64,000 bases of DNA from Elusimicrobiota bacterium (GCA_044450965.1 JBIOJO010000012.1:3040-67039); one strand, 5' to 3'; shown: positions 5,226 to 47,600, numbered from the stretch's first letter. Notes: generated by a model from the sequence alone, not told the origin. Program-made: numbers and translations.

Positions 5226-5279
5226 TCGAACCGGGAGCGGCGGCGTGCCGGGTTTAAACGCCCCCGGCAATATGACAGA

Positions 5280-8323: not shown

Positions 8324-8455
8324 TTCCGTAACCTCGGTAAAACCGATGTAACAAAATCGTCAAACCGTGACTTCATAATACCCTATATAGGAAATCTGGA
8401 AAACGAATTATAAGCAATTCCAAATAATGTATTCTCGATCTTCCATATTTCCCAA

Positions 8456-9457
8456 ATGAAGGCAGCCCAAACGACGGCGCGCGGTGCCTTTTTTTTCTGT
8501 CTTCTCGGCGCGCCGTTTTTCATCGGTCCGCGCGCCTCTCTCGCCGCCGGGCCCGGCACTTCGGCGGCCACCTTCCTGGATCTGGGCTTCGGCGCCCGCC
8601 CTCTCGGCTTCGCCGAAGCCTACGTGGCCATGGCCGACGACGTCTCCGCCGTGCATTACAACCCCGCCGGTCTTTCCCTGCCGCAGCCGGCCATGCGCGC
8701 CGCTCCCGGACCGTACGAGATGCTGTTCACGCACACGCTCTACATCCAGGGCATTTCGCTGGATCAGCTGGGCCTGGTGCGGCGCCCCTGGGGGCTGAGC
8801 GTCACCAGCCTTCGGGTCGGCGGCATTGAAGGCCGCACGTTGGAGACCGACACCGCCGCGAACTTCAATGCGTCCGACCTGGCCGTCGGCGTCAGCTACG
8901 GCCGTCAGGTGGGGCCGGTGGGCTTGGGCGCGACGGTGAAGTACATCCATGAGACCATCGCCAACGCCTCCGCCGACGCGTACGCGGCGGACTTCGGCGC
9001 GCTGCATCGCTTCGAAAATTATCCCGTCTCGGTCGGCGCGGATCTGGCGAATTTGGGCACGAAGGTGCGCTTCATCGACCAGGCGGCGCCGCTTCCCCTG
9101 GTGCTGCGGACCGGCGTCACCTACGGCCAGACCAAGAGCTTCCCTCACGCGCTCAGCCTCCAGATCGACGCGCCGCGGGACGGGGCGCCGTTCGTGCGGC
9201 TGGGCGCGGAGTATCAGGGCTTCGGCCCGTTCGCGCTGCGCATCGGCTACCGCACGTTCAGCGGCGGCCAGAAGGACGCGGTGCTGGGCAAGGCGCTGGG
9301 TAGCACGGCGTCGGGCTTCTCCGAATTTTACGGGCTGTTCCTGGGCATGGGCCTGCAGACGAAACTGGGGAACCTGGACTACGCCATCATGCCGTACGGC
9401 GAGCTGGGCTTGGCGCACCGGCTGTCGCTGGCCCTGCGCTTCGGCGGTCCCCATTGA
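8456..9457 (+). CDS. PorV/UPF0164-like outer-membrane beta-barrel protein (paralog 2)
   Basis: Signal peptide, then ATFLDLGFGARPLGFAEAYVAMADDVSAVHYNPAGL, the same N-terminal signature as the 4260-5225 paralog. Sits directly upstream of the fibre-like genes. Confidence 0.7.
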   Translation: MKAAQTTARGAFFFCLLGAPFFIGPRASLAAGPGTSAATFLDLGFGARPLGFAEAYVAMADDVSAVHYNPAGLSLPQPAMRAAPGPYEMLFTHTLYIQGISLDQLGLVRRPWGLSVTSLRVGGIEGRTLETDTAANFNASDLAVGVSYGRQVGPVGLGATVKYIHETIANASADAYAADFGALHRFENYPVSVGADLANLGTKVRFIDQAAPLPLVLRTGVTYGQTKSFPHALSLQIDAPRDGAPFVRLGAEYQGFGPFALRIGYRTFSGGQKDAVLGKALGSTASGFSEFYGLFLGMGLQTKLGNLDYAIMPYGELGLAHRLSLALRFGGPH

Positions 9458-9477
9458 ATCAACATCAAGGAGTCGTC

Positions 9478-10359
9478 ATGAACGCGACGTCACGCTTTTC
9501 GAATCGGGCCATTCTGGCCCTCATTCTGATCCTGGCCGCGGCCGGCGCCGCGCGCGCCACGGCGCCCAATCTGATGACGTACCAGGGACGGATCAAGGAG
9601 TCTGGCCTGCCGGTGACGGGCGCGCGCAACGTGGACATCTATCTCTGCCCCGATCCGGTCGTCGCGATTGGAAGCTGCTTCGACACCGGGGTGCAGAGCG
9701 TGTCCGTGGTCAACGGCCTATTCCGCACGACGTTCACCGCGCCCTCCGGCGTGAACTGGGAGAGCGGACAGTGGTACCTCCAACTGCAGGTGACCGGCGC
9801 GCTGTTCACGCCGCGCGAATTGTTCGCCTCCGCTCCCTATGCCGTCTACGCCTCCAGCGCGGCGACCTTGATCCCCAATCCCGGGGACCCCGGCGTCTTC
9901 ATCGCGCCGAACGTGGCCATCGCGGGCGACGGCTTCAGCGTCGGCGCGTCGACCTTCGTGGTCACCGGGGGCAACGTGGGCGTGGGGACGGCGACTCCCG
10001 GATCGGCGTTGGAGGTGAAGGGAGCGCTGACCATGAGCGGCTCCAGCCACGTCCGGATGTCCGGAGCGGGCGGCGCGGTGCCGTCCATCGGCGGTAATTG
10101 CGGCGGCGGGTCGATCGTCGGCAGCGACACGGCCGGCCGCGTGACGATCGGCGCGGGCGCGGCCCCTACTTTGGTGGACTGCACGATCGCCTTCGGTACA
10201 TCTTGGAGTCCGAATCCGCCCGTCTGCCATTTTACCAGCGAGACCGGCGTCGCCGTGGCCTACGCGGTTAGCGCCGTCAGCGCGTTCAGCGTGACTTTCA
10301 AGGGGCCCGGATCGCTCAACAACGGAGACGTGATCAGCTATATCTGCCTGAGCTACTAA
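9478..10359 (+). CDS. secreted tail-fibre-like protein, short form (N-domain + Cys-containing C-domain)
   Basis: Strong RBS AAGGAG 6 nt before ATG 9478. The ORF opens at a TTG at 9454 that overlaps the upstream stop. Signal peptide ILALILILAAAGAARA. The N-terminal ~110 aa are paralogous to the N-terminus of the 1930-aa protein (LMTYQGRIKESGLPVTG vs VLTYQGRLKEAGLPVTG). GNVGVGTATPGSALEV motif as in phage tail-fibre repeats. Confidence 0.7.
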   Translation: MNATSRFSNRAILALILILAAAGAARATAPNLMTYQGRIKESGLPVTGARNVDIYLCPDPVVAIGSCFDTGVQSVSVVNGLFRTTFTAPSGVNWESGQWYLQLQVTGALFTPRELFASAPYAVYASSAATLIPNPGDPGVFIAPNVAIAGDGFSVGASTFVVTGGNVGVGTATPGSALEVKGALTMSGSSHVRMSGAGGAVPSIGGNCGGGSIVGSDTAGRVTIGAGAAPTLVDCTIAFGTSWSPNPPVCHFTSETGVAVAYAVSAVSAFSVTFKGPGSLNNGDVISYICLSY

Positions 10360-23962: not shown

Positions 23963-25894
23963 GTGATCATTCGCTCTCGCCGCATCGCGGCGCTCGCCGC
24001 GCTGCTGTGCGCTTACGCGGCCCTCCGGCCGACGTACGCCGCCGCATCGGATCAGGCCAGCCTGCAGTTCACGGTGCCGGCTCCTGATCCGGTGCAGGCG
24101 GGCGAGACGCTGTCCATCCAGGCCCTGGCCGTCAACACCGGCTCGAGCCAATGGGCGGCGGGCAGCTATTACTGGGTGGCGGAAGTCTACGACGTCGAGT
24201 ACCGCTTCCTGACGCGCACCGAGCAGATCTCGCCCACGGACAACGTGCCGCCGGGCGGGGTGGCCGCCATCACTCTGCCGTTCTCCGTTCCGGCCACCGC
24301 GACGGGACGGCGCTTCTACCGCGTGTACCTGGTGAAAGACAACCGCCAGCTCCTGGAATCCGACTACAAGGCGTTCCAGATCCTGGAAAAGGCCATCCCG
24401 CCGCCGCCGGAGTCCGTGGACTACCGCGTGGAAGGAAACGTGACCGTCAGCCTGAAGGATTCCAGCATCGGCAAGTGGCGCCAGGTCAACGGCTCGACCG
24501 CGGTCAACATGGTGGGCAAGCTCAAGGACGCGTCGTACCTGCTCAACGCCAACCTGATCCACGCCCCCGGAAAGGTGGTCGACCCGTACAGCATCCTTTT
24601 CAGCTACTACGCTCCTTGGGGCCGCATCTACGCCGGCGACATCGCCCCGACGTATTCCCAGCTGTCGGTGAACGGCCTGGGCCTGCGCGGATTGATGCTG
24701 GAGCAGAACAAGGGCATCTTCGATTGGTCCGTCCTGGGCGGGCAAAGCGTCACGTCCCAGGCGGGGACGGCCGCGATCAACGGCCGCTTCGCGCGCTCGA
24801 TCTACGCGGGCCGCTTCGGCGTTTCGCTGCCGGCCAACGTCAAGGCCGGCGTCAACGCCTTCCAGAGCGCCGACGAGGTCGGGTCGCTGAGCAGCGACCC
24901 GAAGTCCAACAACTTCCGCGGACCGGCGCTGGCCGCGCAGAAGAACTCGGGCATGGGCCTGAACCTGTCCTGGGCGCCCGGGGCGGGCGTGACCGTCCTG
25001 GCGGACTACCAGAAGAACACCTACACGCCGGACACGACTTTGCCGGCCGTCTCGGACACGGCCCGGCGCCTGGAGCTCCGCTGGGACACGCGGATGACCA
25101 AGCTGAAGGTCTATACGCAGCGCACGGGCGCGCACTTCATCGCCTTCGGCGCGCCGTCCGTCATCGGCGACCGCAACACCATGGACGCCAGCCTGGGCTT
25201 CTTCCCGGCGTCGTGGTACACCCTGAACCTTTCCGGCGACCAGTACACGGACAACCTGGCCAACGACCCGAACAAGCTCACGACCACGCAGCGGATCCTG
25301 AACGTCGGCAACGCGTTCCACCTGCCGACGGGAACGGATTTCAACCTGGGGGGTTCTTTGAACACGGCCAAGGGCAAGCAGGCCTCGGCCCTGGACAACA
25401 AGACCGTCACGGAAAGCGTCGGGCTGACTCAGGCGATCAAGAAGCACACCGTGTCCCTGAACATCCAGAACTCCCAGTTCCGCGATCTCAACAAGCTGTC
25501 CCACGACCTGGACACGCAGACCTTGGGCTTGAACACGAACCTGTCGCTGCCGCACAACTCGATCGGCTCCTTCGGCGTGACGACGACGCAGGCCAGCGAC
25601 AAGATCGACGGCAGCAAGCGCAAGAGCCAGTCCACCTCGGCCAGCTATTCACGTCCGCTGTGGCCCTCGTGGACCGGACAGTTCTTCGGCTCCCTGACCG
25701 CCACCAAGAACACGTCCCCGCTGTTCCCGTCCGACTCGTCGACGCTCTCGCTCAATTCCGAGCTGACCTGGACGGTCGAGAAGCAGATCAACGTGGCGTT
25801 CGGCGTGGGCTACAACAAGACGCAGGACAAGCTGTCCAGCGCCAACAGCACGAAGGAGATCGTCCTCTCCACGCGCTACTCGTACTCCTTTTAG
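23963..25894 (+). CDS. large outer-membrane beta-barrel protein (hypothetical)
   Basis: Signal peptide, alternating amphipathic beta-strand composition, Gly/Asn/Ser/Thr-rich, C-terminal ...YSYSF (aromatic terminal residue typical of OMPs). GTG start. Confidence 0.55.
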   Translation: MIIRSRRIAALAALLCAYAALRPTYAAASDQASLQFTVPAPDPVQAGETLSIQALAVNTGSSQWAAGSYYWVAEVYDVEYRFLTRTEQISPTDNVPPGGVAAITLPFSVPATATGRRFYRVYLVKDNRQLLESDYKAFQILEKAIPPPPESVDYRVEGNVTVSLKDSSIGKWRQVNGSTAVNMVGKLKDASYLLNANLIHAPGKVVDPYSILFSYYAPWGRIYAGDIAPTYSQLSVNGLGLRGLMLEQNKGIFDWSVLGGQSVTSQAGTAAINGRFARSIYAGRFGVSLPANVKAGVNAFQSADEVGSLSSDPKSNNFRGPALAAQKNSGMGLNLSWAPGAGVTVLADYQKNTYTPDTTLPAVSDTARRLELRWDTRMTKLKVYTQRTGAHFIAFGAPSVIGDRNTMDASLGFFPASWYTLNLSGDQYTDNLANDPNKLTTTQRILNVGNAFHLPTGTDFNLGGSLNTAKGKQASALDNKTVTESVGLTQAIKKHTVSLNIQNSQFRDLNKLSHDLDTQTLGLNTNLSLPHNSIGSFGVTTTQASDKIDGSKRKSQSTSASYSRPLWPSWTGQFFGSLTATKNTSPLFPSDSSTLSLNSELTWTVEKQINVAFGVGYNKTQDKLSSANSTKEIVLSTRYSYSF

Positions 25895-26817
25895 TTCGCT
25901 TCGGCGGGAGCCGGGCGCGAGGACAGCTTGCGCAGGAACTTCTTGAGCTGCGGATCCTCGGGAGAGAGGGCCAGGGCTTTCTGCCAGGCCTCGCGCGCCT
26001 TCGGGTGCAGGCCGAGAGAGTAGTACGCCGAGCCCAGCCGCTTCAAGGCGACCAGGTCCGCCGGCTCCAAGGCGAGGGCCTCGTTGAGCGTGTCGATCGC
26101 CTGGTGGTAGCGCGCCCCGTACATGTGATCCAGAGCGACGGAGCGCTTGTACTCGAGCAGGGTCATGCCCGGGGTGACCAGGTCGGTGTTGACGAACTCC
26201 GGATGGCGCGACAGGAACCAGTCGAGCAGGCGCTTGATGCGCGTATCGACGGGCTCCAGCTCGCGGGCGTAGCGCAGGCCGTCGTAGGCCAGCTTGTAGT
26301 CCTGGTTCTGGCCGACGGCGGCGTTGACGGAGAGGGTGGTCAGCCTCCAGGCCTTCGATTTGTCCGGAGCCTCCGGCACGATCAGGACGATGTCCTCGAG
26401 CGAGGACTGGAGCGCGGAGGCGAACGGGGTGCGGTTTCCGTTTTCCAGGAGGGTTTCCAACCCGGCCAGCGCCGAACGGTATCGGCCGGTCCTCACGTTG
26501 GCCAGGATCTCGGTCAGGCGCTTCGCGTTCGTCTTCTCGACGTCGTTCTGGACCTCGCGGATCATGTCGCGGGCGGTTTTCTGGTCGGGGTCGAGGCGGA
26601 GGATGTCGTCCCAGACCTGGATGGCCCGGCCGTAGTCGCCCGACTTGTAGAAGGCGAAGGCCTGGTCGTAGTACTTCTGCAGAACGACGGCCTTCGATTC
26701 CTGCGGTGCCTCCGCGGCGCGCGCGCATATCGGATGAACGGAAAGGATCGCCGCGAAGGCACCCAGGCGCAAAAAACGAACGGAGAGAAGGGCAACGGCG
26801 ACGGACTCGCCGTACAC
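25891..26817 (-). CDS. periplasmic TPR-repeat protein (last gene of the stator-rotor-like operon)
   Basis: Probable GTG start at 26817. The 534-aa ORF on the track extends upstream in another frame over the MotB2 gene and is not credible there. TPR motifs (AFAFYKSGDYGRAIQVWDDILRLDPDQ, YYSLGLHPKAREAWQKALALSPEDP). Confidence 0.65.
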   Translation of the reverse strand: MYGESVAVALLSVRFLRLGAFAAILSVHPICARAAEAPQESKAVVLQKYYDQAFAFYKSGDYGRAIQVWDDILRLDPDQKTARDMIREVQNDVEKTNAKRLTEILANVRTGRYRSALAGLETLLENGNRTPFASALQSSLEDIVLIVPEAPDKSKAWRLTTLSVNAAVGQNQDYKLAYDGLRYARELEPVDTRIKRLLDWFLSRHPEFVNTDLVTPGMTLLEYKRSVALDHMYGARYHQAIDTLNEALALEPADLVALKRLGSAYYSLGLHPKAREAWQKALALSPEDPQLKKFLRKLSSRPAPAEAN

Positions 26818-26879
26818 CCCTCCGTCGGTTTTTCGTGCCTTGGTGTCTTTGTGGTTCAATCCGCTGCCGTGGGACAATA

Positions 26880-27524
26880 TTAGCTGTCTTTCTTGACCTC
26901 GCGCACGATGCTGATCTCGATGCGGCGGTTGCGCGCGCGTCCTTCCGGGGTCAGGTTCGTGTCCACGGGACGCATCTCCCCGTAGCCGCGGGCGTCGAAG
27001 CGCTCGGGAGAAAGCCCGCGCTCGACGAAGAATTGGCCGATGGCGAAGGCCCGGGCCGCCGACAGTTCCCAGTTGTTGCGGAGGCGGCTGCGCAGCAGGG
27101 GCTTGTCGTCGGTGTGACCGGAGACGAGGATGGGGTTGGGGATGCCCGCGAACAGCTTGGCCAGCGGCTCCAGGACCTTGCCGGCGTCGGGATTGAGGGT
27201 CGCGGAGCCGGGGGCGAAAAGAACCGGCTCCGGCAGCAGGAGATGGATGTGCCGGGAGGTCACGCGCAGCCCGAAGTCGCGAAGGGCCAGCTGGTCCATC
27301 TGCTGCTTGACGTTGACGGCCAGGTCGGTCTCGTCGGCCCGGACGCGGGCGAAGTCGGAGCCCGCGTCCATCTCCTTCTGCATATGGGCGACGGCGCGCT
27401 GGTACTCGGGGGGCGTCTGCGTGTAGTTGTACGCGAACAGCGCCAGGAAAAGGATCACCATGGTGGACATCAAGTCCGCGTAGGGAACCATCCACAGGCC
27501 GGTGAGATCGTGCTTCTTACTCAT
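26880..27524 (-). CDS. motB: MotB/OmpA-family stator protein, paralog 2
   Basis: Single N-terminal TM with the conserved proton-channel Asp (WMVPYADLMSTMVILFLALF). C-terminal OmpA-like peptidoglycan-binding domain (ILVSGHTDDKPL...NWELSAARA...RNRRIEISIV). Confidence 0.8.
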   Translation of the reverse strand: MSKKHDLTGLWMVPYADLMSTMVILFLALFAYNYTQTPPEYQRAVAHMQKEMDAGSDFARVRADETDLAVNVKQQMDQLALRDFGLRVTSRHIHLLLPEPVLFAPGSATLNPDAGKVLEPLAKLFAGIPNPILVSGHTDDKPLLRSRLRNNWELSAARAFAIGQFFVERGLSPERFDARGYGEMRPVDTNLTPEGRARNRRIEISIVREVKKDS

Positions 27525-28200
27525 CGGCGGCGGCTCCTCCGCGGAGGATGACGATTTCGACGCGGCGGTTGCGGCCGCGGCCGCCGCCTTCGTTGGGCGC
27601 CAGCGGGTGGTAGGGGCCGTAGCCGGCCGCGATCATGCGCGCGGGGGGGACGCCCTCCCGGGTCAGCAGCTCGATGACCGAGGCGGCCCGGGCCACGGAG
27701 AGCTCCCAGTTCGTCTTGTAGGGCCCGGACACGACGGGAACGTCGTCGGTGTGCCCTTCCACCAGCACGTCGTTGGGAATCTGCTTGAGCACCCCCGCCA
27801 GCAGGCTCAGGGTCTTGCCGGCGTCGGCGTTCAGGCCGGCCGAGGCGCTGGGAAACAGCAGTTGGTTGCGCAGGCGCACGCGGATGGTCCGCTCCGTCAC
27901 GTCGATGTCGGCGGAACTCTTCAGCCGCGAGCTCTGCATGAGCCCCAGAAGGGCCTCCGCCGCCTGCTTTTCCTTGAATTCCCGGATCAGCGCGTCGGCC
28001 TTCGCCTGCTGGTTGTCGATGAGCTGGGAGGCCTCGAACGCGCGCAGCCACTCGGCGCGGGTCTTGGGATTCTGCAAAGTGAAGGAATACATGACCAGGA
28101 AGAACAGCATCAGGTTGGTCATCAGGTCGCACAGGACGACCAGCCAAAGCGGGTTCTCCTCCGCTTGCGCGCGCGTCACGCGGTGGAGGAACGGCATCAT
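27517..28200 (-). CDS. motB: MotB/OmpA-family stator protein, paralog 1
   Basis: TM with conserved Asp (LWLVVLCDLMTNLMLFFLVMY). OmpA-like domain (VLVEGHTDDVPV...NWELSVARAASV...RNRRVEIVIL). Overlaps the MotA stop by 4 nt. Confidence 0.85.
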   Translation of the reverse strand: MMPFLHRVTRAQAEENPLWLVVLCDLMTNLMLFFLVMYSFTLQNPKTRAEWLRAFEASQLIDNQQAKADALIREFKEKQAAEALLGLMQSSRLKSSADIDVTERTIRVRLRNQLLFPSASAGLNADAGKTLSLLAGVLKQIPNDVLVEGHTDDVPVVSGPYKTNWELSVARAASVIELLTREGVPPARMIAAGYGPYHPLAPNEGGGRGRNRRVEIVILRGGAAADE

Positions 28201-28982
28201 GCGGCGGCCTTGTAGGGGCGTTCTCCTCGGGCGCGGAGATGGAACGACAGGTACGCCTCCAGCCTCTTGGCGATCAGCCAGGGCGCCTCGTCCTGCTGCA
28301 GCGCCAGGACGCCCTTGGTGATGAGCTCCCGAGCCAAGACTTCCTCCTCAGAATAGTGGTTGAGCTTGTTCGCGATCGGGAGGAAGATGAAATTGGCGGA
28401 GAAGATGCCGTAGAACGAGGCGGTCATGGCGACGGCCATGGAGCTGCCCATCGCCTTCGGATCGGTGATGTTCCTCAGCACCTGCACGACGCCGATCAAA
28501 GTCCCCAGCAGGCCGAAGATCGGCGCGAAGGTGCCGGCGGAGCGGAAGATGCCGCTGATCTGGTCGTGGCGCTGCTGGGTCGCCAGGATGTCCCGCTCGC
28601 AGCGTTCCTTGATCATCTCGTGCTCCAGGCCGTCGACGAGCATCTGGATGCAGTCGCCCAGATAGGGATGCGGGACGTAGGGCGCGTCCTCGGCCAGGGA
28701 ATCCATGCCGTCGCGCCGCGATTTCTCGGCAAGCTTCACGATGGAGTCGATCAAAGTCTGCGCGGAAGGGCGCTTCGGGGGGAAGAACATGATGTTGAGC
28801 GCCATCGGGATCTTGCTCAGCACCGACCAGGGGTAGCTGATCATGATGGAGCCCAACGTGCCGCCGAAGATCAGGACGATCGCGTCCACGTTCAGCAGGA
28901 ACTGCATCATGTGCCCGGCGGCTAGAACGTAGAGAATCACTCCGGCGCCGCAGATGATTCCGCCGACGGTCATGAAATCCAT
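28197..28982 (-). CDS. motA: MotA/PomA-family proton-channel stator protein
   Basis: 261 aa with four TM segments. Cytoplasmic loop carries charged residues (KRPSAQTLIDSIVKLAEKSRRDGMDSLAEDAP). TM3/TM4 hold the conserved prolines (TFAPIFGLLGT, FIFLPIANKL). Confidence 0.85.
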   Translation of the reverse strand: MDFMTVGGIICGAGVILYVLAAGHMMQFLLNVDAIVLIFGGTLGSIMISYPWSVLSKIPMALNIMFFPPKRPSAQTLIDSIVKLAEKSRRDGMDSLAEDAPYVPHPYLGDCIQMLVDGLEHEMIKERCERDILATQQRHDQISGIFRSAGTFAPIFGLLGTLIGVVQVLRNITDPKAMGSSMAVAMTASFYGIFSANFIFLPIANKLNHYSEEEVLARELITKGVLALQQDEAPWLIAKRLEAYLSFHLRARGERPYKAAA

Positions 28983-28988
28983 GGCGGA

Positions 28989-30404
28989 CTAGGCCTCCTG
29001 CGGGACGGCATCGGAGGGCCGGACGTCGGGCTCCGGGGATTTCTTGCGCAGGACGATGCGGCCCTCGCGGACCAGCTGCGCGAGGGCGGCCAGCACGGGC
29101 TGGCGCGCCGCTTCCAAGGCCTCCGGCGTGGGATCGGAGGAGAGCTCGATCTCCTGCGTCAGCCACTCGCGGGTGCCGGTGGCCAGCTTGGGAAGGACGT
29201 TCAGGCGGAGCACGGCGGAGGACTTCAGCAGCACCGCCAGGAGCTTCGCCGGGACGCGGCGGGACAGGAGTTTGATCTCCGCGGGCTCGAGCGCGGCGAT
29301 GTCCTCGATGAAGACGATGCGCCGGCTCACGTTCTCCGCGATCTCGGGATCGTCGCCGCGGAGCGTCAGGAGCAGGTCGCTTTGGATGTCGGCGGGGAGG
29401 GTCTCCAGCAGCTCGACCAGCTTGTCCTCGCCGCCGATCATGTAGTCGATCCTCTGGCGGACCGACTCCTCCAGGGGACGGACCTGGCTTTCGACCAGCT
29501 CGTTCACGCGGCTGAGCAAGGAGACGACCTGGCGGCGCGCGTCCGGCTCCAGCGCGGCCAGCACCTTGCCCGCGACGTCGGGCGGCAGGTATTGGACGAC
29601 GGTGGCCGCGACTTCCTCGGTGGAGCCGCGGAGAAGATGGATCAGCTTGGGCAGGTCGCCGCGATCGAGAAAGGAGAACGGCAGGCCGGCCCTTCCCTCG
29701 GCGGCGTGCGGGGCGGGCCCCGATCCGGGCGCGCCCGCCGCCGCGGCGGCTTCGCGTTCCGCCGCGGGAGCGCGCTCCTCTCCGCCCTTGCGCATCAGGG
29801 CGGCGGCGCTCAGGTCGCGCAGATTGGTGATCAGCGGCCCGAGGAACTTTCTCTGGAGCACGGCCAGCGCGATGACGGCGAACAGCAGCCACAGCGCCGA
29901 GCTTCCCAGGGTGAAGTATCGCTGGGTGTCGGGCGCGGGGCGCGGCTTGTGAAATTTTATCTTCTCGACGTTGAGGCTGTCGCCGCGGCCGGCGGAGATG
30001 CCCAGTATTCCGGCCGCCACCTTCTTGACCAGCTCCACGTCCTTGGCCTCCGTGTCCTGGTCGACGATGAGCGTCGCCGAGATCCGGTTGACCATGGGCA
30101 TGCTCATCCCGGCGGCGCCGGCCATCGGATCGGCCGCCTGGGCATCCTTGGGGGGGACTCCGGGCATGACCTCGGAGTCGTCGTGCTCCGTTTCCGATTT
30201 CAGCGCCACGTTGACGATCACGATCAGGTCGTCGGTGCCGAGGGCTTCGCGCAGAACCGCCTGAAGCCTCTTCTCGAGGGAGCTCTCGAGCGCGACCTTG
30301 GCCTCCAGTTCCCGGGAGGCCTCCTTGGGCGTCACGGCCGCCGCGGCGGCCCCGGCGAGGGCCAGCAGAACGGCGCCGCAACAAAGGTTGAGTTTGTAAG
30401 ACAT
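28989..30404 (-). CDS. fusion protein: FliF/SctJ(YscJ)-like ring-building periplasmic domains + TM + FliG C-terminal (torque-helix) domain
   Basis: Signal peptide. Two RBM-like segments (LEKRLQAVLREALGTDDLIVIVNVALK and ISATLIVDQDTEAKDVELVKKVAAGILGI). TM helix ALWLLFAVIALAVLQ. The cytoplasmic C-terminal ~200 aa align to FliG middle/C-terminal: GGEDKLVELLETLPADIQSDLLLTLRGDDPEIAENVSRRIVFIEDIAALEPAEIKLLSRRV...LRLNVLPKLATGTREWLTQEIE vs FliG GGVDLAAEIL...EIRNLMFVFEDLVKLDDRSIQRVLREV...IFSNMSKRAAEMLREDLE. Confidence 0.7.
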   Translation of the reverse strand: MSYKLNLCCGAVLLALAGAAAAAVTPKEASRELEAKVALESSLEKRLQAVLREALGTDDLIVIVNVALKSETEHDDSEVMPGVPPKDAQAADPMAGAAGMSMPMVNRISATLIVDQDTEAKDVELVKKVAAGILGISAGRGDSLNVEKIKFHKPRPAPDTQRYFTLGSSALWLLFAVIALAVLQRKFLGPLITNLRDLSAAALMRKGGEERAPAAEREAAAAAGAPGSGPAPHAAEGRAGLPFSFLDRGDLPKLIHLLRGSTEEVAATVVQYLPPDVAGKVLAALEPDARRQVVSLLSRVNELVESQVRPLEESVRQRIDYMIGGEDKLVELLETLPADIQSDLLLTLRGDDPEIAENVSRRIVFIEDIAALEPAEIKLLSRRVPAKLLAVLLKSSAVLRLNVLPKLATGTREWLTQEIELSSDPTPEALEAARQPVLAALAQLVREGRIVLRKKSPEPDVRPSDAVPQEA

Positions 30405-30506
30405 CGCCTTCGAAGTCTAACAGGCGCCGCGGCCGAGGTCAAGGCCGCGAAACATCCTCTTAATATCCCGTCGGCAACCCGCCCCCGGGACGGGCGCGGG
30501 GGCGGC

Positions 30507-30926
30507 TCAGCTGGGCGCGAACTCCGCTTCGAACTCGCATTTGGCGACGCTGCCGCAGGCTTCGGGACCGCCGCCGTAAAGCTGTTCGGCGCAGGCGATC
30601 TCGGCGGACCCGCGCTCCTCCAGCTTCGTCAGGGACTGCGCGACCAGCTCGCTGAACTCGAAGGAGCCGGAGCCGCAGCGGCCGGGGCAGTCGGCTTCGA
30701 CGATGAAGGGGTCGTTCGGACCGATGAGGTCCTCGGTTTCGTCGAGGACGACGCCCTGGGGGGAGGTCACGGTGACGCGGACCTTGACGCCGCGGACTCC
30801 GGGGAAGCGCGTGGCCAAGGTTCCGGCCGCGTGCGCCTCGGCCTCGGCCTCGCGGCCGCGCTGGACTTTTTCCTGGTTCTTGTTGGGACCGGCCTTGCGG
30901 CGCTTCTTGCGGTAGAATCCGGGCAT
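30507..30926 (-). CDS. hypothetical small protein (basic N-terminus, four Cys), first gene upstream of the FliFG-like gene
   Basis: ORF of 139 aa with mixed composition, on the same strand between the histidine-kinase gene and the FliFG-like gene. No recognisable domain. Confidence 0.35.
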   Translation of the reverse strand: MPGFYRKKRRKAGPNKNQEKVQRGREAEAEAHAAGTLATRFPGVRGVKVRVTVTSPQGVVLDETEDLIGPNDPFIVEADCPGRCGSGSFEFSELVAQSLTKLEERGSAEIACAEQLYGGGPEACGSVAKCEFEAEFAPS

Positions 30927-30982: not shown

Positions 30983-31787
30983 TCAGGGGGTTGGAGTCGT
31001 CTTAAGGAGCAGGGTCACGGTCGTGCCCTTGCCGATCCCCGGGCTGGCGATGGAAACGTCTCCTCCGTGCTTGTTCATGATCCAACGCGCGACGTTGAGG
31101 CCCAGGCCGGTGCCGCCGCTCTCGGAGCGGCCGGTCGCGAACGGTTCGAAGAGGCGGTGGAGCGCGGGGGCCTCGATGCCGACGCCGGTGTCCGTCAGGG
31201 TCACACGGGCGTTCGCCCCGACGGCTTCCGCGCGGATGTCCAGCCGTCCGCCGAAGGGCATGGCGTCGAGCGCGTTGATCAGGAGGATGGTCAGGACCTG
31301 ATGAAAGTGGCGCTCGCTGGCCAGCACCGTCATCCCTTCCGCGCCGGAGATGGACGTCTCCACGCCGCGCTCGTCGAAGCGGATCTTGAGCGGCTCGAGG
31401 GCGGCGGACAGCCGGGGCCCCAGCGCCGAGGGCTTGAGGTCCAGGGCGGAGGGCTTCGCGAAATCCAGCACGTCGGACAGGATCTCGACGGCGCGGTCGG
31501 CCTCGCGCGCGACGGTCAGGAGTTGCTCGCGCGGATCGCCGCCTCGGTCCAGGACGCGTTGCGCGTACTCGACCGTCAGGATCACGGTGTTGAGGGGCGT
31601 GCGGACCTCGTGCACCACTCCGGACATCATCTGGCCCACGGTGGACAGGCGCTGCAGCCAGGCCAGCCTCTCTTCGTCGGGAATCCCGGCGAGGGGGGCG
31701 GGCGGGCCCCGTCGGGCGAGGACCCAGCCGGCCAGCGCGCCCAGCACGGCGGCGGCCGCCGTCGCCGCGAAGAGCTTGGAGTCCATG
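30983..31787 (-). CDS. sensor histidine kinase (short N-terminal TM + HisKA + HATPase)
   Basis: Start MDSKLFAATAAAAVLGALAGW at 31787. The longer ORF on the track extends upstream with no homology. H-box VHEVRTPLNTV. HATPase G-boxes (DTGVGI, GGTGLGLNVARWIMNKHGGDV). Confidence 0.8.
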
Positions 31788-31810
31788 CGGCATTTATATA
31801 AAATCCGGAG

Positions 31811-32518
31811 GTGACACCAAAGGTTCTCCTGATCGAAGACGACGCCTCGTTCCGCAAGGCGGTATCCGACGTCCTGACGCTCGAAGGCTACGAAGTCCTG
31901 CAAGCGCCCTCCGGAAAGGCCGGCATCCTGGCCGCGCAGAAGGAAATGCCCGACCTGGTCGTCCTGGATTTGATCATGCCCGGCATGAAGGGGCTGGAGG
32001 TCTGCCAGTTCCTCAAGCAGGACGCGCTGACGGCGCGGCTGCCCATCATCATCCTCACCGGCAACGACAAGGACGGGCAGGACATCGCCTGCCTCGACAT
32101 GGGCGCCGACGACTACCTGACGAAGCCGGTCAAGAGCGAGCGCCTGATCGCCTATTGCCGGGCCCTGCTGCGGCGCAACGCGGGGGAAACCCACGGTGCG
32201 CCTCCGGCGCGCATCGAAGTGGGCGCGCTGGCCCTGGACTACGGCCGCAAGATCGTGGCGATCGGCAAGGTGGAGCATCCGCACCTGACGCCCAAGGAGT
32301 TCGAGCTCCTGTACTATCTCGCGGGCCGCACGCCGAACCCGACGGATCGCGCGACGATCTACCGCGACGTCTGGGGTGTGGAGCCGCCTTCCGAGGGCGT
32401 CCTGAAGACGGTCGAGGTCCACGTGCGCCGCATCCGCCTGAAGCTGGGCTGGAAGTCCGAGCAGTGGCTGGTCAGCGTCTCGGGACGCGGCTACGCCTTG
32501 GTTCCTCCCAAGAAATGA
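31811..32518 (+). CDS. OmpR-family response regulator
   Basis: REC (KVLLIEDDASF...LVVLDLIMPGMKGLEV...DDYLTKPV) plus a winged-helix output domain (LTPKEFELLYYLAGRTPNPTDRATI...VHVRRIRLKLG). Divergent from the kinase gene. Confidence 0.85.
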   Translation: MTPKVLLIEDDASFRKAVSDVLTLEGYEVLQAPSGKAGILAAQKEMPDLVVLDLIMPGMKGLEVCQFLKQDALTARLPIIILTGNDKDGQDIACLDMGADDYLTKPVKSERLIAYCRALLRRNAGETHGAPPARIEVGALALDYGRKIVAIGKVEHPHLTPKEFELLYYLAGRTPNPTDRATIYRDVWGVEPPSEGVLKTVEVHVRRIRLKLGWKSEQWLVSVSGRGYALVPPKK

Positions 32519-35524: not shown

Positions 35525-35592
35525 GCCGCCACCTTCTAAAGGAAGGCGCCGTGGCCGCACGTCGTGGTGGCATTTACGGGAGACAACAAGAG

Positions 35593-38500
35593 ATGACTTC
35601 GATTCGATTCACTCGCAACGTGAAATCCGCGATCGCCTCAGCCGTCAGCCTGTCCCTGTTCTTGAGTTCCGCCGGTTGGCCCGCGTCGCGGGCGTTCGCC
35701 CAGGCCGTCAGCGCGGCGCGCGCCGTCGAAGGAGCTTCTCCCGTCCTGGCGCTTCCGGTCTCCGCCGCGTCCTCCCTGTCACCGATCTCTCCGCTGTCCG
35801 CGGGCGCCGCGTCGTTGAATTCCGCTCCGCCCGCGGCCTCCGCGCCGTCCTTCCGGAGCGCCTCTTCCGCGTTCGCTCCGGCGCGCGCCGCCGTTCCCGC
35901 GGCCTTGCCCAGCGCGGCACCCGCGCTTCACGCGGCTCCCGCCGCGGCGGACAAGGCGAAGCCGTCCGCGCCCGCGCCGTCCGAGCCCGCCGCGGCGCCG
36001 TCCGCCCCGCAGAGCGAGGGCGGCCCCCGCTGGGTGGAATCCGACGGCGCCGAGAAGCCCGTCAAGTCGGACGAGTCCGGGCCGCGCTGGGTGAAGACCG
36101 GGATGAAGGCCTGGATCGGCCGGCAGCTCTCCCGCTGGACGAAGGCCGACGCGGCCGTGTCGCGCAAGGAATTCGACGGGGACCGCGCTCATGACCACGC
36201 CGCGCAGGACGCGCCGGCGGCCGTCGCGGGCGCCGAATCCTCCTCCGCCTCGGGATTGTCCAAGGGCGACGAGGCCTCCCGCATCATCAACGACGTCTCG
36301 ATTCCGACCCCCGAGGCCGCGCGCCGCGTCGGCGAGCTCCGCCACGAGCACGGGACCCCGCTGTGGGCGAAGGTCGTGGCGCCTCTGTCGGTGATCGCGG
36401 CGGGCGTCGTGGCGTTCCACTTCGGCGCCGTCGGCGTCCTGACCTTGGGCGCGGGCTTGGTGGTGTCGGTCCTCGCCCACGAAGTCGCGCATCTGGCCGT
36501 CCTCAAGGCGCTGGGAGACCACACGGCGGAACACGCCGGCTCCCACAGCCTGAACCCGTTTCACCACGTGGACGCGGTCAAGACCGTGATCCTGCCGGCG
36601 CTGTCGCTGGCGATCTCCAGCGCGCTGCTCCCGTTCCCGATCCTGCTGGGCTCCGGAAAGGCCGTGGACGCGGACTTCAACAACCTGCGGGGCCCGCTGG
36701 GCGGACCGCGCTCGGCGCGCAACGCGTTCTGGGTGGCGGCGGCCGGTCCGCTGACGAACTTCGCGATCGCCGGTCTCGCCCTGGGCGCGGCCGCGCTTCT
36801 TCCGGCCGGAGGCCTGCTGGCGGGCGTGGCGATCGGCCTGGCGCACATGAATCTCGCGCTCGGCGTGTTCAACCTCCTGCCTTTGCCTCAGCTGGACGGC
36901 GGCAAGATGCTGGCCAGCGCGCTCCCCGAGGGCCTGTACGCGAAATGGGTGTACAACCCCAACGTGGAGAAGGGCTATCAGGGCCTGTTCCGCCGGCTGT
37001 ACGAAGGTCCGACGAACCTGCTCACCTTCATCGCCGACAAGCTGGGCGTGAAGAGCCAGAAAGGGCTGAACCTGGTCGCCAACGGCGTGACCTTCGCGGC
37101 GCTGGCGGCGTTCTACGCGGTGGCGTACGTCCATTTCGCGGTCGCGGTCCCGCTGCTGTTCCTGGCGCTGCCGTGCACGTACGACTACTGGTGCATCCGC
37201 GAGAAGGTCCGCTCCGAGGCGGCCGTGAAGGACGTCATGGACATCTTCAGCGTCTGGAGCTCTGTCATCGCCCAGATCGCCGAGGACCACGGGATGGCGA
37301 GCGAGGTCAGCCTGTTCGAGACCGAGCACGCGATGAAGAACGCCCTCGAGACCCTCATCGACGAGATGATGGCGAAAGAGGACTTCCGCGCGATGTCCGA
37401 CGAGGAGAAGATGGCCGCGGTCATGGCCGCGTATCCCGACAAGGCCGCCGACTTCCTGAAGGACAAGGTCTTCACCGAGGGCGCCGACACCAAGGAGAAG
37501 ATCCTGGAGGTCCTCCGCGACCCGCGCAACGGCCCGTTCTACGACCGCCTCAAGAAGTGGTTCGGCGACCACGACATCTTCAAGCGCTGGGACAACCCGA
37601 AGTACGAGGGCAAGCTCCGCGACCAGATGAAGGACGCCGACAAGCCGAAGTCCCGCGGCCAGGGCGGCTCCACGACCTTCGGCATGCTGGGCTTCCTGGC
37701 GCTGGTCGGCGGGGGAACCTTGCTGCTCGGCGCTCACGCGCCGGCGCTGGCGGGGGGCCTGGGCCTTCTCGGCCTGATGGGCACTTTGTCCGCGACGGGT
37801 TCGCCGCGCGCGTCGAAGTTCCAGCCGCGTCCCGGCGACGAGAGCAGCAACCTGCGCGTGCGCTTCGCGGAAGGCACGACGCCGGAGCAGGCGCGCGAGG
37901 TTCTGCGCGCGTACGACGGCGCGGTGCAGGAGGACACGGGCAATCTGGTGGTGTTCCACGTTCCGGCCGCCAACCCCGCGGCCGCGGTCATGATCGCCCG
38001 CGCGCTCGTCGAGTCCGAGCGCGTCGAGATCATTTCCGCTTCCAGCGCGGTCTACCCTTTGCTGAACGCCGGGGCGGAGGAGTCCGCCCAGCTTCCGCTC
38101 CCGCTTCCCTCGGCGCAGGGCGACGGCGATCCCCGCGCCGCCTCGGAGACGTCCGACGTCCCGTCCCCGACGTTCTCTCGCCCGATCCCCCGCGAGTGGC
38201 ACGAGAAGCTGCGCACCTCGCGCGGCCACCTGCACACGCGCGTGACGGTGCTTTTCAAGCCGGGCACGCCCGTGGGCATCGCGAAGGAGGTCCTCCGCGC
38301 CTACGAGACCAAGACGCCTTTCGGCGGTCCCTCTCACGTCGTGTTCCGCGTGGACGCCGGCAACCAGGTGGAGGCCGCCGCGATCGCCTCGGAGCTGGCC
38401 AAGAACGAGAAGGTAGCCACCGTCTCGGTCACCGGGGCCGTCTATCATCGCCTGACCGGCCATAACGAGCCCGCCGAGCCGTCCGCCTCGTCCGAGCCGA

Positions 38501-41500
38501 CGACCCCCGCCGAACCCGCCCGGACCGAGACGCCCGCCGAGCCCGCCGCTCCCGAGGCCGCCGCTTCGGCGCCGCAGCCGACCGAGGCCGAGCAGGCCGC
38601 CGCGCACGAGGCCGCCGTGGAGGCCGAGGCGCGCGCCCAGGACGCCGGCGACGGCCGAGCGAAGATCGGAGTCCGCGAAGGGGCCGCCGAAGGCGTCGCC
38701 GGCGCCGACCTCGGCGACCGCGACATCCTCGTCGAGCTCGCCGCCAGTCTTTCCGACGAGGTTCGCGAACGGATCCGCTCGGATATATCCGCGATGAGTC
38801 CCGTCACCCGCGCCAGCATCCGCGAGGACGGCATCCTGTCGTTGGGCCTGCGCTTCGACGTGGACGACGCCGTCGAGGTGGCCAAGGAGATCGCCAAGCT
38901 CAAGGCGGTCAAGTCCGTCACGACGTCCTTGGCCGTCCGCGACCGCATGATGGCCGTGTCCCTGCCCGCGAAGATCGCGTCGCACGGCAAGGAGCATTGG
39001 AGCACGAGCGCCGTCCTGGTCGGCTTCGCCGCGGACACCCCTCGCGTCGAGATCGAGAAGATCTTCAAGGCCCAGGGCCAGAATCATCTGTTCCGGCACG
39101 GGGACCTTTATGTCCTGAGCCTGCGCGACGCGAAGAAGGCCGCCGAGGCGGCCAAGGAGCTGGCCGGGGACGCGGCCGTCGTTTCCGTCGAGGTCCACCC
39201 GAACGTGGGCGCGGCGCTGGAGAACCGTCTGACCCAGCCTTACCCGAAGGCGGAGAGCTACGACCCGTCCCAAGCCGTCCTGATCCAGTTCAAGCCGGGA
39301 ACCACCGAAGCGGAAATGAAGGATTACGCCGAGCTCCGGAAGATGAAGCTGATCTACCCCAAGTTCCGCGGCATGGAGAACCTGGCTCTGGCCGAAGTCC
39401 TGTTCGGCGGCGACGCCGCGCTCACCCGGCAGATGCTGACCGACGAGACCCTCGACGAGGGCTCCAAGGTCGCGGAGGTCAAGCCGTTCAAGGAGCAGCC
39501 CGGCGAGGCGCCGTTGGCGCCGTCCGCCGCCGCCGTCGCGCGGGCCGAGGCCCGCAAGGCCGCGCTGGCCGCCGCCGAGGAAGCCAAGCGCCACGTGCCG
39601 CGCCGCGACGTCTCGGCGGAGTGGCTGAACTTCCTCCAGACGCGCAAGCTCAACGACGGCACCACCCTCAACGACAAGCAGGTCCAGGCGCTGGCGGAGT
39701 TCCTGAAGCCCGTCGCGAAAGGCCCGGGAGAGGCGCGCCCGCCCGTGGTCGCGCGCACCGAGGAAGTGAAGCGGATGCTGCCGATCGTGACGTCTCCGCG
39801 CGGCATGCGCAACAGCGTGATCCTGGTCGGCGGCGCCGGCACCGGCAAGACCGCGGTCGCCGAAGGCCTGGCCGAGATGATCGAGGACGCCGAGCACGCG
39901 TCCGCCAACGACGGAGACCAGTTCCTGCAGTTCCAGCGCCTGAAGGGACGCTGGCTGGTGGAGCTGGACATCAACAAGGTCCTGTCCGCCGAGGATCCGA
40001 TCAAGGTCCTGAACGCGGTGCTGGACATCCTGCCGCGCTTCAACGACCCGAACCCGGGCCGCGGCAACGAGGTCATCGTCCTGATGGACGAGATCCAAAA
40101 GTTCTTCCTGGACAACCAGGGGCAGAAGATCGCCAACATCCTGAAGGGCCCGCTGCGCGACGGCAAGATTTCCGTGATCGCGACGACGACGGACACCGAG
40201 TACAAGAAGTTCATCGAGTCCGACGACGCGTTCCGCCGCCGCCTGGAGAAGATCGACGTCGCCGAGCCGAACGTGGCGCAGACCACGCGCATCCTGCGCG
40301 CCATGAAGGGCTGGCTGACGAAGATCCACGACGCGGTGGTCCCCGACGAGGCGCTGGTGGCGGCCGCCAAGCTGACCGACCAGTTCGACAAGACGAACTT
40401 CAATCCGGACAAGTCCATCAAGGCCGTGCAGGACGGCGCCGAGCTGTCGCGCCCCGAGAACCTGCGCGCGGCCGTCACCTTGGACATTCGCGAGACTTGG
40501 AACGACCTGACGGTCGCCGTCAACGAGGCGCGCCAGGCCCTCCTCGACAAGGGCATCGCGTCGACGTTGGCTTTGCCCATCGAGGCGTACAACAAGATCG
40601 CCGACCTCATCAAGAAGGCCGAGGCGCTTTACGCCGAGCGCGAGGCGATCGCCGACGGCCAGGGCCGCCTGACCGTGGACGTGGTCAAGCGCGTGATCGC
40701 CCAGAAGACGGGCATCGCCTCCGGCCAGCTGAACATGGGAGAGGAGGACGCCTCCCGCTACAACGACATGGAGAAGACCATCGGCGCGCGCGTGATCAAC
40801 CAGGATCCCGCCCTGACGGCCATCGCCAACGCGATCCGGCGCAATAAGGCCGGCCTCTCCAACCCGAACCGGCCCATGGGCAAGTTCCTGCTCACCGGCC
40901 CCACCGGCGTCGGCAAGACGTATCTGGCCAAGGAGCTGGCGCGTTTCCTGTTCAACGACCCCGAGGCCATGATCCGCATGGACATGTCCGAGTACATGGA
41001 AGAGCACACCGCTCAGCGCCTGACCGGCTCGCCGCCCGGCTACGTCGGCTACGGCGAGGGCGGACAGCTCACCGAGGCCGTGCGCAAGAAGCCCTACTCC
41101 GTGATCCTGTTCGACGAGGTCGAGAAGGCGCATCCGAAGGTGTTCGACGTGCTGCTCCAGATCCTGGACGACGGCCGCCTCACCGACGGCCAGGGCCGCA
41201 CGATCGACTTCAAGAACACCGTCATCCTGATGACCTCGAACGCGGGCATGGGCTCCGTGGACGGCGAGAAGTACGCCAAGCTGCTCGACGCGATCGAGGA
41301 GCACAACGCCGCGGTCGAGGAAAAGACCGCCCAGCGCCAGGCCGTCGAGAAGGCCTGGGACGACGAGATCGACGCGGCCGTCGCGGAGCACCTGAAGGCC
41401 AGCTTCCGCCCCGAGTTCCTGAACCGGCTGGACGAGGACCCGCGCTCCAAGAACAAATGGATCCGCGTCAACCGCCTGCGCGCGCAGGACACGGCCAAGA

Positions 41501-46430: not shown

Positions 46431-46508
46431 TCCTTGAGTGTAGCCGAGGCGCGCGGGGATTCAAGGGGGAATCTTCCTTTTCGGCGCTGATATTCGTAAT
46501 ATGCCCTC

Positions 46509-47600
46509 ATGGTCAGAAGAATCCTCGTCGCGGCGCTCCTGTGCTCCGCCGCCGTTCCCGGCCGGGCGGCCGGCGTGGCCGTGCAATCCCTCGGCTACCA
46601 GCTGCTCGAAGGTGGGAAATTTCCCGCCTTCTACGCCCATCTGCTCGGCGCGGACTTCAACGCCGCGTGGACGCGCTACCAGCAGTCCAATCCCTCCACC
46701 GCCCAGGAGATGTTCCTGGACGACGCGGTGCGCCCCCAGAGCAACGACTTCGCCGTGATCGTCCTCTCCAACCCGGACGCCGCCGACGCGAAGGTGCGCG
46801 TCGAGGTCGGCGTCGAGGGCTACGCCGAACCCGCCGCCCAGACGGTGGTGGTTCCGGCGAACGGCACCGCGACGGTCTCCTTGACCCCCGCCTTCACCGA
46901 CAAGCTCTACTCGCTCCAGGAGTCCGCGCCCGCCAACGTGGACACGAAGGTGACCGACGCGGACGGGAAGGTCCTCTTCGAGAAAACGAAGCGGATCACC
47001 TTGCTGAGCAAGGACTATCTGGTCTGGGGCATCGACTCGGACTACGACCTGGCCTTCGGCGTGGCCGCGTTCGTGACCCCGCACGACTCGGGCAAGGCCA
47101 TCGACCGCCTGCTCAGCGCGGCGGCGGAGAAGGCCTCCGGCCGGGCCTTGGGCGGCTATCAGGGCGACGATCACCAGAAATCCGTGGAAGACCAGGCGCG
47201 CGCGATCTACCAGACCATCCACGAGATGGGGGTGAAGTACGTCAACGCGCCCGTCTCCTACGGCAAGAACGACCAGCGCATCAAGTTCCCGGCGGAGAGC
47301 CTGGCCGACAAGTCCGGCAACTGCATCGAGGGGACCTTGCTGTTCGCCAGCGCCTTCGAGAGCCTGGGGATGCGCCCCGTGGTGATCCTGGTCCCGGGAC
47401 ACGCCTTCGTCGGCGTGCGCCTGTGGGACAACGACGACACGATCCTGCCGATCGAGACCACCATGGTGGGCACCGATCCGTACAAGGACGCGGTCGCCAC
47501 CGCGGTGCAGGAACTGAACCAATATCTGGCCGACGGGACCGCGACCATCGTGGACATCTCCGTGCTGCGCCAGATGGGCATCACGCCGGCGCCGAACTGA
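46509..47600 (+). CDS. secreted transglutaminase-like (papain-fold Cys-His-Asp) domain protein
   Basis: Signal peptide. SGNCIEGTLLFASAFESLGMRPVVILVPGHAFVGVRLWDNDD matches the transglutaminase-like core, with the Cys in GNC and the His in PGHAF. Confidence 0.6.
   Translation: MVRRILVAALLCSAAVPGRAAGVAVQSLGYQLLEGGKFPAFYAHLLGADFNAAWTRYQQSNPSTAQEMFLDDAVRPQSNDFAVIVLSNPDAADAKVRVEVGVEGYAEPAAQTVVVPANGTATVSLTPAFTDKLYSLQESAPANVDTKVTDADGKVLFEKTKRITLLSKDYLVWGIDSDYDLAFGVAAFVTPHDSGKAIDRLLSAAAEKASGRALGGYQGDDHQKSVEDQARAIYQTIHEMGVKYVNAPVSYGKNDQRIKFPAESLADKSGNCIEGTLLFASAFESLGMRPVVILVPGHAFVGVRLWDNDDTILPIETTMVGTDPYKDAVATAVQELNQYLADGTATIVDISVLRQMGITPAPN

Follow-up and report, generated by a model that had tools for sequence, protein, structure and literature searches.

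What does a flagellar-type motor do in a locus where no other part of a flagellum is encoded? FliG and stators with a plug, an OmpA-type anchor and a torque interface are currently regarded as flagellum-specific (PMC12505986), and a survey of flagellar loss has raised the question of what role rotor proteins play in genomes without filaments (PMC12199754). Here we analyzed a 64,000-nt stretch of DNA from an Elusimicrobiota bacterium (GCA_044450965.1 JBIOJO010000012.1:3040-67039; about 67% G+C), referred to below as the window, in whose coordinates all positions are given. It contains a minus-strand operon encoding a single-chain FliF-like/FliG-like protein (the fusion), MotA, two MotB paralogs (MotB1 and MotB2) and a tetratricopeptide repeat (TPR) protein. 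Converging on this operon are genes for outer-membrane and giant secreted proteins with type IX secretion system (T9SS) hallmarks, namely a protein of the PorV family and a C-terminal sorting domain (CTD) of type A. We favor, with a probability of about one half, the reading that the operon specifies a rotor-stator module which descends from the flagellar motor, is self-contained and is coupled to a PorV/CTD surface apparatus, not a flagellum. The locus thereby offers a concrete and widely conserved candidate answer to the question of what rotor proteins do without filaments.

An earlier inspection of this DNA (the sequence-only reading) had listed six tightly packed co-directional genes here, and all six lie on the minus strand where it had placed them (Table 1). 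The fusion and MotA genes are separated by 6 nt, the MotA and MotB1 genes overlap by 4 nt, and the MotB1 and MotB2 genes overlap by 8 nt. The best start of the TPR gene is a GTG at 26819, with GGAGG ahead of it.

The candidate rotor is the fusion, for which an identical (100%) NCBI record carries the name "FliG C-terminal domain-containing protein". It matches Pfam FliG_C (51.2 bits; cutoff 23.3) and FliG_M (29.5 bits; cutoff 25), and a profile of the family, built from 26 members, aligns at positions 241-455 with Thermotoga maritima FliG_MC (E = 1.9e-34), from a common PFSF motif onward. The same profile matches FliF weakly (E ~0.002), over the end of the third ring-building motif (RBM3) and the second transmembrane (TM) helix. 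We modeled the monomer with AlphaFold2 (AF2) from an alignment of database matches (predicted local distance difference test score, pLDDT, 75 overall and ~90 in the FliG part; predicted template modeling score, pTM, 0.40). In the model, a hydrophobic N-terminal helix (a signal peptide or TM1) is followed by a periplasmic domain (aa 27-149) with an alpha-beta-beta-alpha-beta, FliF-RBM3-like fold, a long TM helix at ~165-190 and a disordered, low-complexity Ala/Glu/Pro linker. FliG middle and C-terminal domains (FliG_M, ARM_C and the C-terminal helices, with the Gly-Gly hinge and torque helix) occupy aa ~242-452. A disordered insert (73-102) bearing an invariant PGVP splits the periplasmic domain, whose nearest structural relatives are ring-forming motifs throughout; scores against other ring-building motifs were 8.7 for PrgK, 8.1 for EscJ, 7.8 for SpoIIIAH and SpoIIIAG, and 7.6 for MxiJ.

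Canonical FliF is a protein of ~550 aa with RBM1, RBM2, RBM3 and a beta-collar, and the N-terminal domain of FliG binds its C-terminal tail. The periplasmic part of the fusion consists of one RBM3-like domain (~125 aa), without RBM1 or RBM2, and its TM helix and linker run straight into the PFSF start of FliG_M. FliG_N is absent by Pfam, the sole match being a 17.2-bit ARM-like one within the M region. The fusion is a FliF(RBM3-like)-TM-FliG(MC) protein that lacks FliG_N, RBM1 and RBM2, and the proposed union of a ring domain with the C-terminal part of FliG is borne out by both profile and structure matches. In members of a second branch of the family, subfamily 2 (P0245, P0250, P0271 and P0280), Pfam YscJ_FliF_C, FliG_M and FliG_C all score above cutoff; most subfamily 2 members carry an additional C-terminal TPR, P0245 being without it.

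Alignment with T. maritima FliG shows that the Gly-Gly hinge (G324 G325) is invariant in the fusion family. The MFxFEDI hinge region is discernible as IVFIEDI, its VFxEDI motif lying within the FliG_MC match. The EHPQ motif that binds FliM is lost: T. maritima SEHPQT aligns with GSTEEV, the position is variable in the window's subfamily, and E.P is retained in subfamily 2 only. In the torque helix, an invariant Glu418 aligns with Escherichia coli FliG D289, which pairs with MotA R90 (PMC7564593). The equivalent of K264 is mostly Lys, that of D288 is Gln, and R297 has none.

The second half of the putative motor is its stator, which the sequence-only reading had assigned to the MotA/MotB type. 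MotA scores 86.4 bits against Pfam MotA_ExbB; among NCBIfam models, MotA/PomA come first (198.9 bits for MotA, against 15.9 for ExbB and 15.0 for TolQ), and phmmer matches include Paenibacillus MotA1 (9lu9; E 1.8e-52) and PomA (E 2.9e-41). The TM3/TM4 prolines of this four-TM protein (P154 and P202) are invariant in 25 of 25 orthologs, and Arg or Lys at 89-90 is conserved as well, the window protein having R89 R90 and, further on, E98 D99. Both MotBs, which share 37% identity, exceed the Pfam cutoffs for MotB_plug (33.9 bits for MotB1, 32.1 for MotB2) and OmpA (58 and 70.7 bits), and the channel aspartate is present in all 25 orthologs of MotB1 (D25) and in 24 of 25 for MotB2 (D17). Their best PDB matches are flagellar MotB/PomB. 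NCBIfam ranks MotD/MotB/MotS models first for both, under equivalog cutoffs (156 and 140 bits for MotD). Judged from sequence by the published criteria for flagellar ion transporters (plug, OmpA-type anchor and torque interface; PMC12505986), the stator is of this type, unlike generic Exb/Tol motors. On the NCBIfam scores we reject ExbB/TolQ and GldL/AglR-type motors, and neither B subunit matched the ExbD/TolR type lacking plug and OmpA domain, since both have them.

One anti-phage defence system also uses a MotAB-like motor: Zorya, where the motor senses envelope perturbation. PADLOC matches both MotBs to ZorB (at most 78 bits), and an anti-phage ProA-like fragment occurs elsewhere in the window. 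However, the MotBs score higher against flagellar MotD, MotA has no long tail at 261 aa and no ZorA match, and PADLOC identified neither ZorC, ZorD nor any other effector, with no match for the fusion, the TPR protein or the neighboring proteins. The named members of the family belong to one phylum and are linked to envelope and surface genes, unlike a patchy defence island. Given the PADLOC result we rejected Zorya, to which we attach only the slightest probability.

Is the operon a peculiarity of one genome? Relatives were compared with the window proteins by tblastn, using the ±10 kb around each fusion gene (loci numbered with the prefix L). A scan of GTDB species genomes yielded 24 loci, 22 of them from Elusimicrobia/Elusimicrobiota, one from a "bacterium" and one on a truncated contig binned as Nitrospirota. 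MotA, MotB1, MotB2 and TPR genes follow the fusion gene in 20 of the 20 loci long enough to judge, so the arrangement is not due to chance. When 1.84 billion representative proteins were searched exhaustively with HMMER, 329 clusters came up at E <= 1e-30; the best 150 of these all score at least 190 bits and are nearly all full-length (450-670 aa), giving a family of at least 150 clusters at 50% identity. All members with a taxon in the source record are Elusimicrobia, including the low-G+C RIFOXYA2_FULL_39_19. In loci where the identity of the fusion is no more than 35-48%, it is 62-70% for MotA and 50-60% for the 643-aa barrel protein encoded opposite the motor operon, a pattern that speaks for selection.

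The surface-protein genes are conserved along with the motor. The convergent run (genes for the ~640-aa barrel, the FecR-domain protein and a protein of ~590 aa, plus the C-terminal ~340 aa of a giant protein) occurs in 15 GTDB loci, and in most it ends 3-10 nt from the motor operon. An insert of 1.8-3.2 kb separates the two runs in L012 and L020; L016 and L022 end within ~3 kb of the TPR gene, and the convergent run is not seen there. Among the longer loci only the Nitrospirota-binned contig is without it. A distant Elusimicrobiales lineage (L032, L034), which is missing the FecR and 592-aa proteins, keeps a giant protein, a Kelch giant, the barrel and the convergent TPR-MotB-MotB-MotA-fusion run. 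In subfamily 2 the order is giant protein, PorV-like+TPR, fusion, large protein, FlbD, MotA and a single MotB (FlbD at 14999-15214 in L037, 16386-16598 in L038 and 16390-16617 in L039), whereas the window's subfamily has no FlbD and two MotB paralogs. FlbD is a small flagellar stator-associated protein. In a third order (L040), giant protein, PorV+TPR and fusion genes converge on MotB-MotB-MotA. All three gene orders include the same set, with genes for a giant CTD protein, a PorV-family barrel, TPR, the fusion, MotA and MotB. T9SS-type cargo and giant proteins, which the sequence-only reading had taken note of in the vicinity, are conserved partners and not incidental neighbors.

This conservation bears on whether the motor genes are a relic of a lost flagellum that does no mechanical work and has stayed next to surface genes merely by inheritance. 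Remnants are known, and rotor proteins without filament genes were reported in 11% of genomes classed as non-motile (PMC12199754). But here functional residues are invariant over ~25 species, full-length fusions form at least 150 clusters at 50% identity, and the gene set has persisted through three rearrangements and a domain fusion. We saw no frameshifts in the family loci, and one stop codon, in L011. A relic is very improbable.

The domain fusion just mentioned ties the motor to the outer membrane. Directly upstream of the fusion gene in L036, L038, L039 and L040, one chain joins a PorV-like barrel to a TPR domain. Its N-terminal half is homologous to the window PorV-like barrel (E 2e-28) and its C-terminal half to the window TPR protein (31% identity over 204 aa; E 1e-25). 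By Rosetta-stone logic this PorV-TPR protein connects the gene that closes the motor operon with the one that opens the surface-protein operon. The TPR protein had been likened to MotX, which forms part of a ring around stators; given its fusion to a PorV-like barrel in other lineages we reject that role, and we place the TPR protein at the outer membrane, not around the stators. The two operons also meet physically. The 3' ends of the TPR and 643-aa barrel genes share 4 nt (25891-25894), and the corresponding gap in L001, L003, L006 and L032 is 3-10 nt, so that there is no room for a terminator between the converging operons.

Could the operon nonetheless be the MS-ring/FliG and stator locus of an unusual but true flagellum, with the fusion in place of separate FliF and FliG and the other flagellar genes elsewhere in the genome? 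All four motor proteins are of flagellar type, and flbD lies ahead of motA in subfamily 2. Artificial FliF-FliG fusions are functional in Salmonella (cited in PMC4768692), and Elusimicrobia are listed among the phyla with flagellins, which some members carry (PMC7018530). On the other hand, a single RBM3-like domain makes up the whole periplasmic part of the fusion, the FliM-binding motif is lost, and the TPR protein of the operon is tied to an outer-membrane barrel by gene fusion. As the sequence-only reading had held, no flagellar families besides those of the motor operon were found in the other window open reading frames (ORFs) scanned with Pfam and NCBIfam. Likewise, fliE, fliH, fliI, fliJ, fliM, fliN, flh and flg genes are absent beside the locus in ~25 species (Pfam-annotated ±10 kb flanks), in which PorV-like, TPR, barrel and giant CTD proteins are the neighbors and flbD of subfamily 2 is the sole flagellar gene. 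The architecture as a whole argues against a canonical FliF/FliG locus, and we consider an unusual flagellum distinctly unlikely. In this respect the idea of a stand-alone module gains support, whereas the MotX-like part of it does not.

How does the locus compare with systems already described? It shares with the flagellar motor core an RBM3-like ring domain, FliG_M and FliG_C with Gly-Gly hinge and torque helix, the MotA prolines and loop charges, the MotB aspartate, plug and OmpA-like anchor and, presumably, the principle that stators anchored to peptidoglycan act on FliG_C as protons flow through them. It departs from that core in that ring and rotor are one polypeptide without FliG_N, RBM1 and RBM2, in the loss of EHPQ in the window's subfamily, in a Gly at the R281 position and in two MotB paralogs. 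C-ring, export, rod, hook and filament genes are absent from the locus; conserved alongside it are outer-membrane barrels and giant CTD proteins.

The closest precedent, and the only described natural FliF-FliG fusion in the literature searched, is the FliF-FliG protein of Chlamydiaceae, which has ~330 aa, an RBM2-like and a second RBM-like domain and only the M region of FliG (Bergeron 2016, PMC4768692). It was discussed as a possible injectisome partner, and stator genes went unmentioned (PMC4768692). Both proteins are natural single chains in which a shortened FliF-like periplasmic region is followed by a TM helix and a cytoplasmic FliG-like part, and the chlamydial one occurs in a lineage thought to be non-flagellated. 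Going by its description, it differs from the fusion studied here, where the ring domain is RBM3-like, FliG_C is present and motA and motB are in the same operon.

With the T9SS and Bacteroidota gliding, the locus has in common a 5:2-type inner-membrane motor driven by the proton motive force (pmf), a PorV-family barrel and large type-A CTD cargo, as well as the logic of a motor serving giant surface proteins; in contrast to the T9SS, there is no PorL/PorM (GldL/GldM), PorK/PorN or SprA/Sov among the window ORFs scanned. Zorya, ExbBD/TolQR and AglRQS belong to the same superfamily of 5:2 ion-driven motors and serve non-flagellar tasks, but their A subunits are without a flagellar torque interface and their B subunits without the plug and OmpA architecture (PMC12505986), whereas the stator here is of flagellar type and has a FliG partner. 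In the literature searched, no FliG/MotAB system is described that includes PorV or T9SS components, nor any in Elusimicrobia. A genomics paper on Elusimicrobia makes no mention of motility genes, and in the supplements of the flagellar-loss survey (PMC12199754) Elusimicrobia appear as species names only (Elusimicrobium and Endomicrobium).

From these features we infer the following mechanism. Fusion molecules would assemble into an inner-membrane ring by way of their FliF-RBM3-like periplasmic domain, and the ring would display covalently attached FliG_MC torque domains on its cytoplasmic face. MotA5-MotB2 units, possibly with a MotB1/MotB2 heterodimer, would be anchored to peptidoglycan by their OmpA-like domains. 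Protons passing via the conserved aspartate would cause the stators to push on the FliG_C torque helix, and the ring would be turned or strained. Because rod, hook and export-gate genes are lacking from the locus, we propose that the periplasmic face of the ring couples to an outer-membrane assembly, which would consist of the periplasmic TPR protein, the PorV-family barrel, the ~26-strand barrel and giant proteins with T9SS type-A-like CTDs. By analogy with the T9SS and gliding, driven by GldLM/PorLM, the output may be the export, anchoring or movement of giant surface proteins.

A different use of the same parts would be a pmf-driven energizer without continuous ring rotation, in which stators push on membrane-anchored FliG-like proteins or alter their conformation and so gate or regulate an outer-membrane complex in a Ton/Tol-like manner, possibly under response-regulator control. 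The 5:2 motors ExbBD and TolQR do power the outer membrane without a large rotor (PMC12505986). The torque-helix position of E. coli R281 is Gly410 here, invariant across the whole fusion family, and subfamily 2 reads NMSEG where canonical FliG has NMSKR; the rotor-stator interface therefore differs from the canonical one. A FecR-domain protein belongs to the locus, and response regulators or a histidine kinase adjoin the module in many species. Set against this are the structural relatives of the periplasmic domain, all of which form rings, and the retention of FliG hinge motifs and of the plug and OmpA features specific to torque-generating stators (PMC12505986). We regard such an energizer as unlikely.

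Several further points weigh against a rotor-stator module that drives a surface apparatus. Of the Pfam families that the sequence-only reading had named for the motor-operon proteins, FliG_C, FliG_M, MotB_plug and OmpA score above cutoff and MotA_ExbB is matched as well. YscJ_FliF_C reaches 20.4 bits in the window fusion, slightly below its cutoff of 23.8. MotA, too, falls under the NCBIfam equivalog cutoffs. Ring formation by the fusion is suggested by fold similarity in a monomer model of pTM 0.40, and coupling to outer-membrane proteins by synteny and one gene fusion. SprA/Sov, PorK/L/M/N and PorU were all missing from the window ORFs scanned with Pfam or NCBIfam, the Pfam-annotated flanks of relatives likewise showed no T9SS core component, and the FecR and 592-aa proteins, conserved in the window's subfamily, are absent from L032 and L034. 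To these are added the invariant Gly410 and the flagellins of some Elusimicrobia. All members come from uncultivated organisms, as metagenome-assembled genomes, and the system is known here from genes alone.

A review counts three rotary motors driven by the pmf: Fo, the flagellar motor and the T9SS (PMC9127263). Tentatively, the module may be an additional rotary envelope machine, made of a minimal FliF/FliG rotor and MotAB without type III export, rod or filament, that drives PorV/CTD secretion or gliding in otherwise non-flagellated Elusimicrobiota. The locus puts the flagellar rotor-stator principle into a fused, reduced form with a new set of partners, and there is a substantial chance that it encodes a distinct kind of machine. 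If the module works in this way, the flagellar torque unit can exist and function independently, either as a co-opted "half motor" or as a model of a pre-flagellar stage, which bears on the origin and co-option of that unit. It would also offer a compact minimal rotor-stator pair for structural study, and it would mean that a little-known phylum has a surface-protein or motility system so far unrecognized.

Table 1. Genes of the motor operon and of the adjoining surface-protein run in the window.
Feature	Coordinates	Strand	Description
139-aa protein (p139)	30507-30926	-	Cys-rich, cytoplasmic; upstream of fusion gene; no family matches (Pfam, NCBIfam, PADLOC)
Fusion, rotor candidate, 471 aa	28989-30404	-	FliF-RBM3-like ring domain, TM and FliG_MC
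MotA, flagellar-type stator A subunit, 261 aa	28197-28982	-	Pfam, NCBIfam and phmmer
MotB1, 227 aa	27517-28200	-	TM with Asp25, plug, OmpA-like peptidoglycan-binding domain
MotB2, 214 aa	26880-27524	-	TM with Asp17, plug, OmpA-like domain
TPR protein, periplasmic	25891-26819	-	Signal peptide (...ARA/AE); several Pfam TPR families above cutoff
PorV/PorQ-family outer-membrane barrel	8456-9457 (scored as 8414-9457)	+	First gene of plus-strand operon; NCBIfam NF033709
Giant repeat/fibre-like secreted protein, 1930 aa	10388-16180	+	Weak YadA_head and Chlorovirus-GP-repeat matches
Giant secreted protein, 1744 aa	16210-21444	+	Kelch propeller, fn3, CarboxypepD_reg, C-terminal T9SS type-A sorting domain
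Secreted protein, 592 aa	21446-23224	+	Fold unassigned; weak CARDB match
Secreted FecR-domain protein, 238 aa	23224-23940	+	Leptospira Lsa33/LipL45-like; Pfam FecR 48.6 bits
Outer-membrane protein, 643 aa	23963-25894	+	Signal peptide, N-terminal Ig-like sandwich, ~26-strand beta-barrel, C-terminal ...YSYSF

The gene upstream of the fusion gene, p139, had been counted as a member of the operon. We rejected it as a component of the system, as it is lineage-specific, occurring by tblastn only in the close relatives L001, L002 and L031; because of this confinement we place it outside the core.

On the plus strand, the window PorV-like barrel scores 120.8 bits against the NF033709 PorV_fam model (cutoff 90) and stays below the PorV and PorQ equivalog cutoffs; L032 holds a counterpart with 52% identity. 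The sorting domain of the 1744-aa Kelch protein matches TIGR04183 at 30.5 bits (cutoff 23), with Pfam Por_Secre_tail at 16.9 bits, below cutoff. Conservation of this protein between species is limited by tblastn to its C-terminal ~340 aa, and its CTD matches that of the L040 giant protein. In L032 and L034, too, the Kelch protein is preceded upstream by a counterpart of the 1930-aa giant protein. The FecR protein matches NCBIfam Lsa33 with E 2.4e-15, below cutoff, and neither its profile nor that of the 592-aa protein gave anything significant against PDB sequences.

Additional surface proteins are encoded in the window. A 301-aa protein (9454-10359, plus strand) and the 1930-aa giant have in common the motif LTYQGR[IL]KE.GLPVTG after their signal peptides and a weak match to the fibre N-domain of the "mosaic adhesive trimer" from Bdellovibrio; this points to fibre-like adhesins that share a base. 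At 1363-4263 (plus strand), a 966-aa NHL-propeller/fn3 protein has a PorZ/T9SS-CTD-like end (TIGR04183 20 bits, slightly below cutoff), so that CTD-type cargo extends beyond the motor locus. In L036, two PorV genes and CHU_C/Por_Secre_tail cargo (1-5327) lie within 10 kb of the fusion gene, with no motAB up to 10 kb downstream.

Regulatory genes were also recorded. A single-domain CheY-like response regulator adjoins the module in ~8 species (L003 9502-9894, L006 9524-9913, L024 ~14375-14758, L018, L020, L023, L009 and L026), where its gene is divergent from that of the fusion or else sits between those for TPR and barrel. The nearest regulators in the window are a histidine kinase (30983-31804) and an OmpR-type response regulator (31811-32518), and a lone receiver is encoded at 57082-57585.

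Three features of the window lie apart from the motor and surface genes. A 366-aa ORF (46500-47600, plus strand) corresponds to the first ~300 residues of the model for the anti-phage protein ProA, at 133 bits against a cutoff of 1500. A single 2808-aa ORF (35551-43977, plus strand), with high G+C at third codon positions, has central ClpB-like AAA+ domains (AAA_2, ClpB_D2-small) and, close to its N-terminus, a weak Peptidase_M50 match; this is one fusion protein of unusual size or else a frame that runs through several genes. At 144-1295, a tyrosine recombinase (phage-integrase family) gene adjoins a tRNA-Met (1219-1295) and may mark the edge of an integrated element.

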